Source of the DNA: Candidatus Omnitrophota bacterium
GTDB taxonomy: Bacteria; Omnitrophota; Gorgyraeia; Gygaellales; Profunditerraquicolaceae
Length of the DNA: 60,870 nucleotides
Assembly (NCBI GenBank): GCA_041651035.1
Contig: JBAZKC010000001.1
Span: 1-60,870 of the forward strand
Direction: 5' to 3'
Shown: one piece after another, positions 9,572 through 38,101 of the stretch
Layout: each line of letters opens with the position of its first letter
How positions within the stretch are numbered: position 1 is the first letter of the stretch
Program-made: the position numbers and the translations under genes
The notes under the pieces: generated by a model
Seen by the model: the letters and a program-made list of their open reading frames with translations, nothing else
Database searches by the model: none
What the model was told of the DNA's origin: nothing

Positions 9572-9587
9572 TTCTGCCTATAAAATT

Positions 9588-9621
9588 AAACCCCGCACTT
9601 TAAATTCAAAGCGCGGGGTTT
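9588..9621 (-). terminator. Intrinsic terminator after the 9645-10325 gene
   Basis: On the minus strand AAACCCCGC...GCGGGGTTT forms a 9-bp stem followed by AATTTTAT. Confidence 0.65.
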
Positions 9622-9644
9622 AATCGGAACTTATACAGCAAGTG

Positions 9645-23907: not shown

Positions 23908-23940
23908 GGGGACGGTTCTGTCAAAGATAGAACCGTCCCC
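23908..23940 (-). terminator. Stem-loop (12 bp) immediately after the CHAT gene; member of a repeated hairpin family
   Basis: GGGGACGGTTCT (23908-23919) pairs with AGAACCGTCCCC (23929-23940). On the minus strand ATTATTT follows. The same arm sequence recurs at 35855-35889. Confidence 0.6.
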
Positions 23941-32267: not shown

Positions 32268-32636
32268 TTATTCTTTATGCTGATTAACGCCTTTTAAAGA
32301 TTCAATTACCTTTACAGCTTCTTTCTTGGTAAGCTTACTAATGTCGGGCTTATGGTAATATTTGTGTATAAAATTGTTAAGATGCCCCTCTTCCCAGCCG
32401 GCCTCTCTAGCAAGATATTCGATATATAACTTCTGCCTGATGGTCAAGCCAAAGGGATTAACCTGATAATATTTGCTGCGTACAAAGAAGTTCATCAGCT
32501 TCCTGAACTTTTCATCATCCAGCTCCTTGGCGCTGCTTACTCCTGCTATCCGCTGAAGGGTATCTCTGTATTCAGCATCACTTAAGTTTAATTCTTTTTT
32601 GACAATATGTATAACAGCTAATTTCTTTTTGTCCAT
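32268..32636 (-). CDS. Phage Mu gp16/GemA-like protein (DUF1018)
   Basis: 122 aa. KLAVIHIVKKELNLSDAEYRDTLQRIAGVSSAKELDDEKFRKLMNFF and LTKKEAVKVIESLK fit the DUF1018 pattern from memory. Confidence 0.6.
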   Translation of the reverse strand: MDKKKLAVIHIVKKELNLSDAEYRDTLQRIAGVSSAKELDDEKFRKLMNFFVRSKYYQVNPFGLTIRQKLYIEYLAREAGWEEGHLNNFIHKYYHKPDISKLTKKEAVKVIESLKGVNQHKE

Positions 32637-32659: not shown

Positions 32660-32746
32660 CACCTTATAAGAGTTCTCCTACAAGGCAATTATAAATACTA
32701 TATATTACTATATCAAGTATTTTCCCGCCTTTATTTATTGCTTAAG

Positions 32747-34243
32747 ATGCCATTTAATGGTAAAGTTATTATAAGCAACACTATAATAAAGGAGATTAAA
32801 ATTAAGTATAATCACGTTTTATTCCTCAATCCTTATATCGAAAGCAGCGCCACAAGCACAATGATGCTTTTCCCTCCCACAGGCCTTGAATATGTGGCAA
32901 CGAGTGCTAAGGGCCTGGTCAATAAGATCACTCTCTTGGATCTGCGCTACGAAAAAGACCTATCCGACATAAATAAGCTTCTGGATTTTATATCCGGACA
33001 GGTCGATATTATCTGTGTGGGTATCGGCTGGGACCGGCAAATCGAAGAAATCTGCCAGCTTCTCAACCGCATGCCGGCTCACATCCCTCTGGTTGTAGGG
33101 GGCTATACAGCTACGGAAAAAGTAAATGAACTCTTTAAGGCATGCCCTGCCATAAATATCATAGCCAGAGGCGAAGGCGAAGAAACAATGAAAGAGATAC
33201 TAAAGGGCCTGCCGCTTAAAGATATCCGCGGTATCTCTTATAGGCAAGACGGACAAATAATACATAATCCCAACCGGCCCCTTCCCGATGTAGACAGCCT
33301 CGCTGCGCCTGACCGTTCCTTAAGGCGTAATGAATACTCACTTGCTGTAAACGGCGTAAGCCTGGCGGGCATAACCTTTGATTCAGTATTGAGCGCGCGG
33401 GGCTGCCCCTTTAACTGTAAATTCTGCACGTTCAGTTTAAACCCGTTAGGGCAAAAAAGAGAGTATGCCGCCCGCAGCGTAAACTCTGTAGTTGATGAGA
33501 TCCAGGGTTTAAAAGCGGGAGTGATACTCTTCAGCGACGACAACCTGTTCGTTGACCCCAAGAGGGCGGAAGAAATCTGTGATTTACTGATCAAACGAAA
33601 GATAAAAAAACGCTTCATCGCGCAAGCCCGGCTGGATATCGCCAAGTATCCGGTACTGCTGGAGAAAATGGTTAAGGTGGAATTTAAGGCGCTATTGATC
33701 GGGATCGAATCGCCCCATGACTGGATACTGACACAGCTTAGCAAAGGATTTAATCAAGAGACCATACGAAAATCGTTTGAGGTCCTTAAGAAATATCCTA
33801 TCTTCTATAACGGTTATTTTATTTACGGCAATATAGGGGAAACTGAAGAAGAGATGTTGTATATCGGGCAATTCGCCAAGGAAATAGGAGTTGATTCCAT
33901 CGCCTGCAATAAATTAAGGATCGAGAAGTTCTCGCCCCTAAGGGAGTTAGCGCTGAATTCCCCGGGTTATCATGTTACCGACAGAGGAGAACTATATTCG
34001 GACACCTACAGCCATGCCGCCTTGAAAAAAATAGGCAGAAGAATAAAATTCTCTTTTTATACCCCTTCACGATTTATGAAAATACTCTGGAAGAATATTT
34101 TCATAACAAAGTTCTTCACTTTTAAAGAAATGCTTCTTGTCCTAATCGCCTCCCCGCGCATCCTCGCAAACGTTATTATCAGAGAAAACCGCAGAGGCAG
34201 GCTCAAAGACTCTCTAAAACGCACCTTTATTAAGAATACCTAA
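32747..34243 (+). CDS. B12-binding-domain radical SAM protein
   Basis: It has an N-terminal cobalamin-binding-like Rossmann region and the radical SAM motif ARGCPFNCKFC. The track start at 32738 is TTG, and the first ATG is at 32747. This is the only substantial plus-strand gene. Confidence 0.85.
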   Translation: MPFNGKVIISNTIIKEIKIKYNHVLFLNPYIESSATSTMMLFPPTGLEYVATSAKGLVNKITLLDLRYEKDLSDINKLLDFISGQVDIICVGIGWDRQIEEICQLLNRMPAHIPLVVGGYTATEKVNELFKACPAINIIARGEGEETMKEILKGLPLKDIRGISYRQDGQIIHNPNRPLPDVDSLAAPDRSLRRNEYSLAVNGVSLAGITFDSVLSARGCPFNCKFCTFSLNPLGQKREYAARSVNSVVDEIQGLKAGVILFSDDNLFVDPKRAEEICDLLIKRKIKKRFIAQARLDIAKYPVLLEKMVKVEFKALLIGIESPHDWILTQLSKGFNQETIRKSFEVLKKYPIFYNGYFIYGNIGETEEEMLYIGQFAKEIGVDSIACNKLRIEKFSPLRELALNSPGYHVTDRGELYSDTYSHAALKKIGRRIKFSFYTPSRFMKILWKNIFITKFFTFKEMLLVLIASPRILANVIIRENRRGRLKDSLKRTFIKNT

Positions 34244-34244
34244 A

Positions 34245-35522
34245 TCAGGGCCTGTGGTATCTGCCGCGCCCCTGCCTATACTTGCCTTTTGCCTGCCTAT
34301 CCGAAGATTGACGCGAAGATTGATGTGAAGGCTGATGCGAAGATTGAACAAAATGTTCCTGGGAGAAATCCGGGTGCTTTGAAATAGGTAATGAAGCCTT
34401 AATAAGTTTCTCAATATCCCGCACATCACGGCCCTGGTCAGGCATTGCAAAAGAAACTGCGTGCCCCTTATGGCCTGCCCTGCCTGTACGGCCGATACGA
34501 TGCACGTAGTTTTGCGCGTCATCAGGAAGGTCATAATTAATAACCAGTTCAACCCCGATAACATCAATACCCCTGGCGGCAATATCAGTAGCAACCAGCA
34601 CTCTGTATTTACCTGATTTAAAACCTTCCAGGGCTTCACGGCGCTGGCTTAGAGAACGGTTAGAATGTATCTCCGCTGCCCTATAGCCCATATCACTAAC
34701 GGACCTGGTGATCTTTCTTGCGTTGTGCTTAGTACGGGAGAATAAAAGGACAGGCCCATGGTATTGCGCGAGCAACTTACTAAGAAGCCGCGGCTTAGCA
34801 TCTTTTTTAACAATAAATACTTCCTGGGTAATGCACTCCGAGGTGGTCCCGGAAGGGGCTATCTCAACACAAACAGGCAGTTTCATGTGTTTGGCGGCTA
34901 TATCCATAACCTCTTTGGGGATAGTCGCGGAGAAAAGCATAGTCTGCCTCTCTTTGGGCAGAAAACGCAGGATCCTCTCTATCTGCGGGGCAAAACCCAT
35001 ATCAAACATGCGGTCCGCCTCATCAAGCACCAGCATTACTACCTCATCAGGCAAGACATTCCATCTACCCATATGATCAATAAGCCTGCCGGGAGTAGCA
35101 ATGACTATACGGGGATCTTTACGAAGCGCGTGTACCTGGTCTTGCATGGAAGCTCCTCCGATAAGGCAAGCTGTCTTCATACCAAAAGCATGCGCGATAT
35201 TCTGAAAAGCCTCATCGATCTGAATAGCCAATTCCCGCGTAGGAGCCAGGATCCAACCTGTACCCTCTTTCTGCGCCAGTAGCTGCACCATAGGAATAGC
35301 AAAGGCGTGGGTTTTACCGGTTCCTGTCTGCGCGATACCGATAAGATCCTTGCCTTGAATTGCCATAGGGATCGCCTTCATCTGGATCGGGGTCGGGACC
35401 TTGAATTTCATGCGTTCAAGAATATCCAGGATCTTAGGCGCGATACCTAACCCGTAAAAACTCTTGTCAGATGGTTCAACCCCTTGAGATAAATTATTTG
35501 TATTAGTTATTCTATGCGGCAT
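34245..35522 (-). CDS. DEAD-box ATP-dependent RNA helicase with low-complexity basic tail
   Basis: 425 aa with the Q-motif region, AQTGTGKT, DEAD (VLDEADRM), SAT and HRIGRTGRAG. The C-terminal tail is SSHQPSHQSSRQSS...GRGRYHRP. Confidence 0.9.
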   Translation of the reverse strand: MPHRITNTNNLSQGVEPSDKSFYGLGIAPKILDILERMKFKVPTPIQMKAIPMAIQGKDLIGIAQTGTGKTHAFAIPMVQLLAQKEGTGWILAPTRELAIQIDEAFQNIAHAFGMKTACLIGGASMQDQVHALRKDPRIVIATPGRLIDHMGRWNVLPDEVVMLVLDEADRMFDMGFAPQIERILRFLPKERQTMLFSATIPKEVMDIAAKHMKLPVCVEIAPSGTTSECITQEVFIVKKDAKPRLLSKLLAQYHGPVLLFSRTKHNARKITRSVSDMGYRAAEIHSNRSLSQRREALEGFKSGKYRVLVATDIAARGIDVIGVELVINYDLPDDAQNYVHRIGRTGRAGHKGHAVSFAMPDQGRDVRDIEKLIKASLPISKHPDFSQEHFVQSSHQPSHQSSRQSSDRQAKGKYRQGRGRYHRP

Positions 35523-35527
35523 AATGT

Positions 35528-35716
35528 TTAGGCTGCTTTTAACCTCTGCCTTTCATCGACTTGGCCAAGATGAATATGGCAGTAAGCTTCGTGATTGTAG
35601 ATACTTAAGATATGTTTGCAATGCGGAAACCTGCACTTTCTACCCTTAGGTGAAGATTTTATTTTTTTAATAGCTGCTCCTTGTGAGAAAACATCGGTAT
35701 AATTTTGTACATTCAT
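35528..35716 (-). CDS. Small Cys/His-rich (zinc-finger-like) protein, possibly a coupling upstream ORF
   Basis: 62 aa with CRFPHCKHILSIYNHEAYCHIH. Its stop lies 5 nt before the helicase ATG. Neither this ORF nor the helicase has a recognisable SD. Confidence 0.45.
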   Translation of the reverse strand: MNVQNYTDVFSQGAAIKKIKSSPKGRKCRFPHCKHILSIYNHEAYCHIHLGQVDERQRLKAA

Positions 35717-35738
35717 TTAAAAATGAATGTACAAAATT
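35701..35738 (-). promoter_or_regulatory. Perfect 18-bp hairpin occluding the start codon of the small ORF
   Basis: AATTTTGTACATTCATTT (35701-35718) pairs with AAATGAATGTACAAAATT (35721-35738) across a 2-nt spacer. On the minus-strand RNA the 3' arm contains the AUG (35716-35714) and the next four codons. Confidence 0.7.
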
Positions 35739-35777
35739 AAAAAGCCGTAAAGGTTAGTTATCTTCCCTTTACGGCTT
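35731..35777 (-). terminator. Intrinsic terminator/attenuator inside the 5' leader
   Basis: The minus strand reads AAGCCGTAAAGG-12 nt-CCTTTACGGCTT, a perfect 12-bp stem (35777-35742), followed by TTTTTAATTTTG. Confidence 0.7.
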
Positions 35778-35809
35778 AAGATTTCCTAATCTTTCTAGAT
35801 TTACGTTTT

Positions 35810-35837
35810 ATTATACCATCTTATATGGATTTGTCAA
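35810..35837 (-). promoter_or_regulatory. Consensus sigma-70 promoter (TTGACA-16 nt-TATAAT)
   Basis: On the minus strand TTGACA lies at 35837-35832 and TATAAT at 35815-35810. Both hexamers are identical to the consensus. Confidence 0.7.
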
Positions 35838-35854: not shown

Positions 35855-35889
35855 GGGGACGGTTCTGTCCTTAGGACAGAACCGTCCCC
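35855..35889 (-). terminator. 16-bp stem-loop immediately after phoU; same family as 23908-23940
   Basis: GGGGACGGTTCTGTCC (35855-35870) pairs with GGACAGAACCGTCCCC (35874-35889) around a TTA loop. TGTCTTTGTT follows on the minus strand. Confidence 0.6.
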
Positions 35890-36599: not shown

Positions 36600-37355
36600 T
36601 TATCCATACCTTCCGGTAATATAATCTTCCGTCCGCTTATCACCTGGAGCGGTAAATATTTCCTGCGTTCCTCCGAATTCTATTAATTCTCCCAAAAGCA
36701 TGAAACCCGTGTCATCCGAAACACGCGCCGCCTGCTGCATATTATGAGTGACTATTATTATAGTATAATTATTCTTAAGCTCACGCATCAATTCTTCAAT
36801 CCTGGCGGTAGCCTGCGGGTCTAACGCAGAGCACGGTTCATCCATCAATAATATATCCGGCTTAACCGCGATAAGCCTGGCGATGCATAATCTCTGCCTC
36901 TGCTCTAAAGATAACCTCAAAGCAGGGCTATGTAGTTTATTCTTTAACTCATCCCATAAAAGAACGCTTTTCAGGCTTTTCTCAACTATCCCGTCTAATT
37001 TATTCCGGGCTCTCCCGTTGGAATGGATCTTTTCTCCGAAAATGATATTCTCGTAGATAGACAACGGGAACGGGTTAGGCCGCTGGAATACCATGCCTAC
37101 GTTCCTGCGCAAGGATACCAGGTCTGTACGGGGATCAAGAATATTGGCTTTACCAATCAAAACTTCGCCTTTTGTGCGCACACCCTCAATCAGATCGTTC
37201 ATACGGTTAAAAACCCGCAGCATGGTTGATTTACCGCATCCCGAAGGCCCGATTATAGCGGTAATCCTATTAGCGCTAAAAGATGAATTTATGCCTTTTA
37301 AAGCGTGAAAATCACTATACCAAAGATCCAATCCTTTCGTTATTATCTTTGACAT
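36600..37355 (-). CDS. pstB: Phosphate ABC transporter ATPase PstB, copy 1 (degenerate signature motif LSLEQ)
   Basis: 251 aa with the PstB-specific C-terminus [10 protein letters not shown]. Walker A (GPSGCGKST), the Q-loop (VFQRPNPFP), Walker B (LLMDEP) and the H-loop (VTHNMQQA) are canonical. The signature is LSLEQ (36900-36914). Confidence 0.9.
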
Positions 37356-38101
37356 TATCCGAACTTCCCCCTGATATAATCATCTGTGCGGCTGTCATCG
37401 GGAGCCGTAAAGATCTTATCTGTCTTATCCAGCTCAATGAGTTCCCCGCCCAAGAAGAAAGCCGTCCTGTCACCGACCCTGGCGGCCTGCTTTACGTTAT
37501 TAGTAACCAGGACTATAGTATATTTTTGTTTAAGCTTGATCATAGCGTCTTCTATTTTGGCAGTAGAGATAGGATCAAGGCCCGAACAGGGCTCATCAAA
37601 TAAGATCACTTCCGGCTCAACCGCCAGCGTCCTGGCTATGCATAAACGCTGCTGCTGGCCTCCGGATAATTTAAAAGCAGACGAGCTTAACCGGTCTTTT
37701 ACCTCTTCCCAAAGATAGGCCTCTCTTAAGACGCTTTCCACTCTCTCTTTTAATAATTTCGTATTTCTTGCTCCGTGCATCCTTATTCCGTAAGCCACAT
37801 TATCAAATATAGATAACGGCAAAGGAAGGGGCAGCGCGAATACCATACCCACCATTTTCCGTAACAGCTCCACATCTATTTCTTTAATATTTTTCTTATC
37901 AAGCTTAACCTCCCCGCCCATCCTGAAATTAGGCATAAGATCATTTAAGCGGTTAAGCATCCTTAAGAAAGTCGTTTTGCCGCTGTTTGACGGCCCGATA
38001 ACGCTTAATATCTCATTGGACTGGATATCCATGCTCACGTTTTTTAACGCCTGTATTAAACCAAACCAGATATTAAGATTTTTTATGCCGAATATTACCA
38101 T
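37355..38101 (-). CDS. pstB: Phosphate ABC transporter ATPase PstB, copy 2 (degenerate Q-loop and H-loop)
   Basis: 248 aa with C-terminus [10 protein letters not shown]. The signature [13 protein letters not shown] is canonical. The Q-loop Gln is replaced by Ala (37835-37837), the H-loop His by Asn (37499-37501), and Walker A reads GPSNSGKTT. Confidence 0.85.

Follow-up and report, generated by a model that had tools for sequence, protein, structure and literature searches.

The subject of this analysis is a leader RNA in a stretch of DNA from a Candidatus Omnitrophota bacterium (assembly GCA_041651035.1, contig JBAZKC010000001.1, positions 1 to 60,870; this whole stretch is called the window). 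On its minus strand, downstream of phoU, which possesses its own strong terminator hairpin, a consensus promoter is followed by the leader, by the gene of a 47 amino acid (aa) zinc protein and by the gene of a DEAD-box RNA helicase. The leader recurs in front of a narrow set of genes and is, as judged from sequence comparisons, a putative attenuator which is conserved across Omnitrophota and absent from Rfam 15. Omnitrophota are uncultured, and to our knowledge almost nothing is known of their gene regulation. The features of the locus, in the order of transcription, are these:

35855–35889, minus strand: terminator-like hairpin after phoU, a 17-bp stem followed by UGUCUUUG (inverted-repeat scan)
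35810–35837, minus strand: sigma-70 consensus promoter, TTGACA-16 nt-TGgTATAAT (sequence, related loci)
35730–35807, minus strand: conserved leader RNA motif with box A, P1, P2, box B and U-tract (covariance model, 84.6 bits)
35786–35794, minus strand: box A, AAAGAUUAG, nearly invariant (66 of 78 instances identical)
35778–35793, minus strand: P1, AAGAUU (35793-35788) paired with AAUCUU (35783-35778), formed by the 5' part of box A
35742–35777, minus strand: P2, also called hairpin 1, the terminator stem of 12 bp with a conserved 12-nt loop, GAAGAUAACUAA
35749–35757, minus strand: box B, CUAACCUUU, spanning the P2 loop and 3' arm (67 of 78 instances identical)
35732–35743, minus strand: U-tract of the terminator, UUUUUAAUUUUG, overlapping the 5' arm of hairpin 2
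35700–35739, minus strand: hairpin 2, a perfect 19-nt inverted repeat with a 2-nt centre (inverted-repeat scan)
35677–35682, minus strand: Shine-Dalgarno (SD) sequence AAGGAG, 5 nt upstream of AUU (sequence)
35528–35671, minus strand: small zinc-protein gene, 47 codons plus stop, AUU start at 35671-35669 (homologue alignment)
34245–35522, minus strand: DEAD-box RNA helicase gene, 425 aa, RhlE/CshA-like (Pfam, NCBIfam)

The leader RNA and the genes behind it

The promoter consists of TTGACA (35837-35832), a 16-nt spacer and TATAAT (35815-35810) with an extended -10 TG at 35818-35817, and scores 12/12. No other perfect TTGACA-N16-18-TATAAT is present in the 60.9-kb window, and by chance one would expect 0.02. 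Transcription is predicted to start near 35803, and the hairpin after phoU is predicted to insulate the promoter from upstream transcription. An earlier reading of this DNA from its letters (the original prediction) had placed the promoter at precisely these coordinates. Near-perfect versions of it, TTGACA-16-TATAAT scoring 11-12/12, are positioned 5-27 nt upstream of the leader motif in almost every true instance. Thus, the promoter is part of the conserved unit, and the transcript should begin at P1 or a few nt ahead of it.

Related loci were mostly collected by a search for the zinc protein at the DNA level (tblastn, one genome per species), in which 262 copies were confirmed and 80 fetched. 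The consensus of the motif starts just past the promoter and reads AAAGAUUAG-AAAAUCUU-AAGCCGUAAAGG-(A/G)AGAYAACUAA-CCUUUACGGCUU-U(5-8), which amounts to a leader RNA of about 60 nt. With 59 instances as the basis of a covariance model, 85 matches were obtained in loci of Omnitrophota and related metagenome-assembled genomes (MAGs), with scores of 39-88 bits. The window itself contains one true match; a weak one at 2878-2973 was dismissed as it is located inside a coding sequence. The 306-nt leader of the window folds with z = -5.95 when compared with shuffled sequences.

P2 is a perfect 12-bp stem with 6 G-C pairs, built from the arms AAGCCGUAAAGG (35777-35766) and CCUUUACGGCUU (35753-35742). 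Directly 3' of the stem follows UUUAAUUUUG (UUUUUAAUUUU in the terminator test). P2 hence has the make-up of an intrinsic terminator, i.e., a G+C-containing stem-loop with a U-tract behind it, and stem and U-run are conserved in most of the 85 instances. A simple terminator scan did not list P2 because the 12-nt loop exceeds the accepted 3-8 nt.

The stem covaries. One of its pairs is UA 27 times, CG 16 times, UG 7 times and GC 3 times, another one is GC in 37, GU in 14 and AU in 6 cases. Covariation is seen at three pairs altogether, a level reached in none of 500 shuffles. For this count the pairs were set by hand, and a covariance model was used alongside; RNAalifold, run on a MAFFT alignment of the motif with its gappy columns, returned no structure. 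In P2 89% of the alignment cells are paired, compared with 35-57% when the partner column is slid. Further, G·U outnumbers A·C by 72 to 17, an excess which argues that the structure forms on the sense RNA. Recurrence before a consistent set of genes together with compensatory changes in a stem are the marks of a cis-regulatory leader RNA, and both are present. The original prediction had taken hairpin 1 for an intrinsic terminator within the leader, a view which the conserved U-tract and the covarying stem bear out as far as a predicted termination goes. It had also made conservation or covariation in relatives the touchstone for both of its hairpins: hairpin 1 is conserved and covaries, hairpin 2 is found in no relative.

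Searches against Rfam 15 yielded no match at gathering threshold anywhere in the window; for the leader this includes the cspA family and the known riboswitches. A permissive search of the leader returned unrelated hairpin families with at best ≤28 bits, compared with thresholds of 40-79. This agrees with the earlier statement that the leader belongs to no known riboswitch class.

Among 42 loci with the zinc protein as the gene next to the motif, about 30 have a mere 15-37 nt, devoid of structure, between P2 and the SD sequence or start codon. Such a gap leaves no room for another promoter, so expression would need read-through of P2 and its U-tract. A leader which has to be read through in this manner would be an attenuator.

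Which genes are located behind the motif? The first gene is the zinc protein in 56 of the 85 instances, a cold-shock-domain (CSD) protein in 19, an NMO/FabK-family enzyme in 4 and another one in 6, among them a PlsC-type acyltransferase. Pfam confirms CSD, NMO and Acyltransferase domains. Four gene orders recur: motif, zinc protein, helicase; motif, CSD, zinc protein, helicase; motif, CspA-like, CSD, zinc protein, helicase; and motif, (CSD), FabK-like, zinc protein, (helicase). A metagenome scan which used a DNA pattern only and disregarded gene content was dominated by chance hits. Of its first 80 loci 14 were upheld by the covariance model, as were 5 more among L161-L200, and 16 of these 19 motifs precede the zinc protein.

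The motif copies ahead of CspA-like genes form a variant of their own with a shorter P2 and a conserved GTAGTAAATAA box just upstream (loci L003:890, L020:4671, L043:2330, L048:96, L055:4446, L068:2383, L078:3172, and L154:6540-6617). In three loci, L040, L042, and L053, the promoter is directly followed by AGGAGG and an ATC or ATT start, and the leader motif is missing. These provide a natural motif-free control for the attenuator.

Classically, bacterial cold-shock regulons contain RNA chaperones, an RNA helicase and lipid-remodelling enzymes. The motif defines a candidate regulon of the same type, i.e., CSD proteins, a helicase, the zinc protein, and FabK-like and PlsC-like lipid enzymes. 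We infer that the set is a cold-shock-type regulon which probably responds to cold. No CSD gene is present in the window. The link to cold shock, at first a mere suggestion, is supported since the same leader precedes CSD genes elsewhere.

The zinc protein, its start codon and the coupled helicase

The zinc protein has invariant ligands in the arrangement CX4CX8HX3C directly followed by HXH (C13, C18, H27, C31, H32, H34). In protein databases its homologues make up 19 clusters of 47-59 aa, exclusively from Omnitrophota-type MAGs; an exhaustive profile search expands this to 251 clusters, nearly all of 42-130 aa. AlphaFold2 did not arrive at a confident fold (mean predicted local distance difference test, pLDDT, of 53). 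The nearest resemblance is to the TAZ module of CBP/p300, which has the same CX4CX8HX3C spacing and a similar local sequence (RxCxxPHC...NH..xC). The best match in the PDB, the 27-residue CBP peptide 1liq, has E = 0.014 and is below threshold, and Pfam zf-TAZ (PF02135) scores 17.4 bits (E = 0.006) compared with a cut-off of 25, i.e., the protein falls short of TAZ membership. It differs from TAZ in possessing one module instead of three, and it is a bacterial protein of 47 aa.

A few distant relatives of the GRxC..GC.TxLSxYN..YC.xH zinc module are fused to helix-turn-helix or to endonuclease VII/Lar-like cysteine/zinc modules (P0108, P0166, P0105, P0139, P0146, P0158, P0159), and the fused domains match phage families in PHROGs. 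From their sequences these fusions hint at nucleic-acid binding. Where copies of the zinc protein lack the helicase, the genes downstream are heterogeneous and give no functional hint. Near two of them, L024 and L056, are zinc-ribbon-like small proteins with C..C-KKECEVPFKP-x8-9-YC..CY.

The start of the gene differs from what was originally proposed. A 62-aa open reading frame (ORF) had been assumed to begin at an AUG buried in hairpin 2. When homologues are aligned, their Met1 coincides with Ile16 of this ORF, the 15 residues ahead of it are unique to the window, and the start is displaced by 15 codons to an AUU. The AUG at 35716 has no SD sequence. The claim that neither ORF has one accordingly holds for the helicase only, as the small ORF has AAGGAG at 35682-35677.

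This unusual start is no peculiarity of the window. Among 78 copies the aligned start codon is ATG in 33, ATC in 26, ATT in 18 and GTG in one. Thus, 44 of the 78 use ATT or ATC, and 33 of these have no in-frame ATG, GTG or TTG before the next upstream stop, which often is 2-7 codons away. Between the ATT or ATC and the conserved KGRKC motif downstream no canonical start codon was present in the copies examined. With ATT or ATC at the orthologous Met1 and no alternative start, AUU/AUC is the initiation codon in the majority of the family. An SD sequence is present 4-5 nt upstream of the aligned codon, as expected of infC-like AUU/AUC initiation.

Codon and SD sequence appear to compensate each other. 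The median pairing energy of SD and anti-SD is -10.0 kcal/mol in ATT/ATC copies and -5.75 kcal/mol in ATG copies (Mann-Whitney p = 2.5e-6, phylogeny ignored), and pairing below -6 kcal/mol is seen in 41 of 44 of the former and in 15 of 34 of the latter. It seems that initiation is held weak by one means or the other, codon or SD. The AUU/AUC start may serve as a brake, or it may be an input which responds to initiation factor 3 (IF3) or guanosine tetraphosphate (ppGpp). A gene family with AUU/AUC as majority start is invisible to standard gene callers, as illustrated by 19 protein clusters compared with 262 copies in the tblastn search.

The helicase is a DEAD-box protein according to Pfam (DEAD 2.6e-49, Helicase_C 3.2e-30) and has the DEADR motif; CshA and RhlE are the closest NCBIfam models, both below their equivalog cut-offs. 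The helicase ATG, at 35522, comes 5 nt after the small ORF has ended at 35528. About 64 of 81 zinc-protein copies are directly followed by an orthologue of this helicase with 70-79% identity. In about 58 loci the helicase starts -4, -1, +2, +5 or at most +14 nt from the stop of the zinc protein, mostly lacks an SD sequence, and frequently overlaps as ATGA or TAATG. Adjacent stop and start, a downstream gene devoid of an SD sequence, and conservation of both are what one expects of a coupled pair. The conserved stop-start geometry supports translational coupling, and the helicase very probably relies on such coupling to the small ORF, as had been surmised from the window. The locus may serve as a natural example in which compensation between start codon and SD sequence meets with termination-reinitiation coupling.

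Boxes A and B and the proposed mechanism

Boxes A and B are conserved far beyond the pairing needs of P1 or P2. They are complementary to each other at 8 of 9 positions, and 97% of the alignment cells are pairable. Together with a UCUU:AAGA pairing they give an alternative hairpin which uses the CCUUU of the terminator 3' arm. A box A:box B helix is thus a candidate for a weak antiterminator, stabilised either by a factor or by temperature. Being invariant, the boxes offer no covariation, and the antiterminator stays a prediction.

A subgroup of loci has lost the P2 stem and the U-tract (L086, L087, L117, L127, L131, L144, L156, L159, L165, L171, L174, and L196). Box A, an AAGACAA loop and box B are unchanged in it, and the box A:box B fold is its minimum-free-energy structure as well as its alignment consensus. 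The subgroup precedes a stand-alone variant of the zinc protein with the C-terminus PYHHP and no helicase downstream. A kissing interaction between the loops of P1 (UUAG) and P2 (CUAA) was set aside, since in most instances part of UUAG falls within the 6-bp P1 stem.

We consider it probable that the locus is an attenuator-controlled cold-shock-type operon in which an AUU-started zinc protein is coupled to a helicase. A constitutively strong consensus promoter would fire into the leader of about 60 nt, in which P1, P2 and the U-tract jointly would terminate transcription intrinsically. Output of the operon would come only from read-through, i.e., be set by conditional termination. The box A:box B helix would win over the terminator only at low temperature or with a bound protein. 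The read-through mRNA would then be translated from a deliberately weak AUU start, offset by a strong SD sequence, and ribosomes which end the zinc protein would re-initiate 5 nt downstream on the helicase. Hairpin 2 would be a lineage-specific addition to the spacer, covering neither SD nor start. Of all this, the comparisons establish the conservation, the covariation, the associated genes, the place of the start codon and the distance from stop to start, whereas termination as such, antiterminator, sensor and induction by cold are predicted.

Candidates for relieving termination are temperature, CSD proteins, the zinc protein, and the helicase. CSD proteins come into consideration because they are co-encoded and because CspA-family proteins of Escherichia coli antiterminate and CspB/CspD of Bacillus subtilis alter read-through; the zinc protein does so because its gene is most tightly linked to the motif. 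In a bolder extension, which we think rather unlikely, the zinc protein would be the trans-acting factor itself, a tiny RNA-binding antiterminator which recognises the box A:box B hairpin and is encoded behind its own target with an IF3-sensitive AUU/AUC start. With the CSD proteins and the coupled helicase it would constitute a self-limiting cold-shock circuit of Omnitrophota and neighbouring lineages of the Planctomycetes-Verrucomicrobia-Chlamydiae (PVC) group.

Several points weigh against an attenuator of this kind. The P2 loop with 12 nt is longer than those of typical intrinsic terminators. The box A:box B helix shows no covariation, both boxes being invariant, and in canonical leaders the alternative fold is predicted at -5.7 kcal/mol compared with -20 kcal/mol for P1 plus P2 (37 °C). 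The helix may therefore not form unless a factor is present, and the boxes may be a protein site instead. When the temperature is low, AUU mRNAs are weaker competitors in E. coli extracts (PMC5499595), so that the AUU start is no obvious device for cold induction. The comparison of SD strengths ignores phylogeny, and the gene-association counts are biased since most loci were retrieved via the zinc protein. RNA sequencing runs were searched for the window and related loci and no transcripts were found; metatranscriptomes of the lake sample which had yielded a related MAG contained only generic helicase-motif matches from other organisms.

The original prediction had assigned the decisive role to hairpin 2, as an RNA thermometer or a gate melted by the helicase which sequesters the start of the 62-aa ORF and, once open, releases the small ORF and the coupled helicase. 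The hairpin, described as 18 bp and now seen as arms 35739-35721 and 35718-35700, is indeed perfect and very stable, and its 3' arm contains the in-frame AUG 35716-35714 and the next four codons. Unrelated strong hairpins are present in the same spacer of a few loci (L051, L052, L023, L034, L100, L039), so that some structural role is conceivable. This AUG and the 15 N-terminal codons are not conserved, however, and the AUU with its optimally spaced AAGGAG is the position at which homologues start. The hairpin ends at 35700, 18 nt ahead of the SD sequence and 29 nt ahead of the AUU; it covers neither, as a thermometer or an occluding helix would have to do. It is absent from all 80 or more related leaders and from related contigs of the same metagenome. 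In this metagenome the depth of related contigs rises over the motif and the zinc-protein core, and across 35694-35735 it is at the level of a single contig. Start occlusion and gating by melting of hairpin 2 are therefore not supported, and we find this reading very unlikely. To all appearances hairpin 2 is a lineage-specific insertion between terminator and SD sequence, which may stabilise the mRNA or serve as a substrate for processing or for the helicase.

Three further explanations concern the motif itself. Promoter, P1, P2 and U-tract could be the gene of a trans-acting small RNA of about 60-70 nt with the loop and box B as seed, the downstream genes being expressed by incidental read-through only. 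A strong promoter, a short terminator-ended transcript and an invariant single-stranded loop would fit, and the anti-SD-like CCUUU of box B (read by eye) could pair with ribosome-binding sites. We regard this as unlikely, as the motif always is in sense orientation immediately upstream of a narrow gene set with no room for a second promoter, and a free-standing small RNA could not tolerate the loss of the terminator seen in the subgroup which keeps the boxes. It would be compatible with an attenuator, the two not being mutually exclusive. It is decidedly unlikely that there is no switch at all and that P1 and P2 are constitutive stabilising 5' hairpins, with P2 a leaky terminator fixing low expression. 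P1 plus P2 are by far the most stable fold at all modelled temperatures, and the factors which might relieve termination are candidates. Against this stand the invariance of box A, loop and box B far in excess of what a stem needs, the survival of the boxes in the terminator-less subgroup, and the association with CSD proteins, helicase and lipid remodelling, which points to a shared regulated response. Very improbable, finally, is a DNA operator below the -10 region with the boxes as half-sites (box A AAAGATTAG, the reverse complement of box B AAAGGTTAG) for a repressor of initiation, possibly the zinc protein. The boxes do form an inverted repeat at 8 of 9 positions, mostly spaced 26-30 bp, and some distant zinc-module relatives carry fused DNA-binding domains of the helix-turn-helix or endonuclease VII-like type. 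Yet box A is located anywhere between 5 and 27 nt from the -10 element, outliers in box spacing of up to 47 nt all are due to insertions into RNA loops, the stretch which separates the boxes covaries in the manner of an RNA stem and has its G·U bias on the sense strand, and a conserved U-tract follows the stem.

The neighbourhood and known systems

A number of observations pertain to the vicinity of the operon. Upstream of phoU are two tandem pstB-like ABC-ATPase genes (36600-38101, minus strand; annotated by eye only), and the two overlap at 37355, where the first has its stop and the second its start. A G+C-rich arm, GGGGACGGTTCTGTC, is found at 23908-23940 and at 35855-35889, each time as both arms of a terminator-like inverted repeat; the window holds 4 matches to the arm compared with 0.04 expected, and one copy is the phoU terminator. 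The hairpin may be a reused terminator or an element like the repetitive extragenic palindromic (REP) sequences. On the other side a gene for a B12-binding radical S-adenosylmethionine protein (32738-34243, plus strand) converges on the helicase; the stops are one base apart with no terminator in between. About 1.6 kb beyond the helicase 3' end and past the radical S-adenosylmethionine gene is a GemA-family gene (phage Mu gp16-like, Pfam 1.5e-11; 32268-32636, minus strand), which hints at a Mu-like prophage remnant nearby. Two more inverted repeats of the window are at 9585-9624 (20 nt, 90%, no spacer) and at 2148-2184 (16 nt, perfect, 5-nt loop).

What the locus exposes is a putative phylum-wide regulatory leader, and parts of it resemble known systems. 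RAT elements (ribonucleic antiterminators) of BglG, SacY and LicT are protein-stabilised antiterminators. There as here the hairpin is weak, conserved and imperfect, overlaps a far stronger terminator and would require a bound factor. The operon at hand has no CAT-PRD protein, the candidate binder being the tiny zinc protein or a CSD protein, and the pairing of the boxes is a predicted one.

The infC gene, which encodes IF3, uses an AUU start codon. By analogy, an AUU-class start conserved across many species would imply sensitivity to IF3 fidelity in the zinc-protein family, too (for AUU behaviour see PMC5499595 and PMC9723500). Unlike infC, the gene codes for a 47-aa zinc protein, and AUU/AUC alternate with AUG among orthologues with SD strength compensating.

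The E. coli cspA thermosensor with its cold box and the autoregulatory 5' untranslated region of csdA/deaD (bioRxiv 10.1101/2021.03.08.434349) share with the Omnitrophota leader a strong promoter and, as predicted here, control after initiation via a structured leader. There is no similarity in sequence or structure; the leader described here is much shorter and would be terminator-based instead of being a translational thermosensor.

Close in logic, too, are the cold-shock proteins themselves. E. coli CspA-family proteins are antiterminators at intrinsic terminators upstream of cold-shock genes (Bae et al., 2000, PMC16622, as cited in PMC8307031). In B. subtilis, CspB/CspD affect terminator read-through and favour termination (PMC8307031). 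The Omnitrophota leader differs in that the terminator is embedded in a sequence-conserved motif, a few to about 20 nt from the predicted 5' end, and in that two invariant complementary boxes accompany it; Csp proteins are candidates for a role here. The likeness is that a predicted intrinsic terminator follows a promoter and precedes cold-shock-type genes, an RNA helicase among them, and that many relatives encode CSD proteins in the very operons which the leader precedes.

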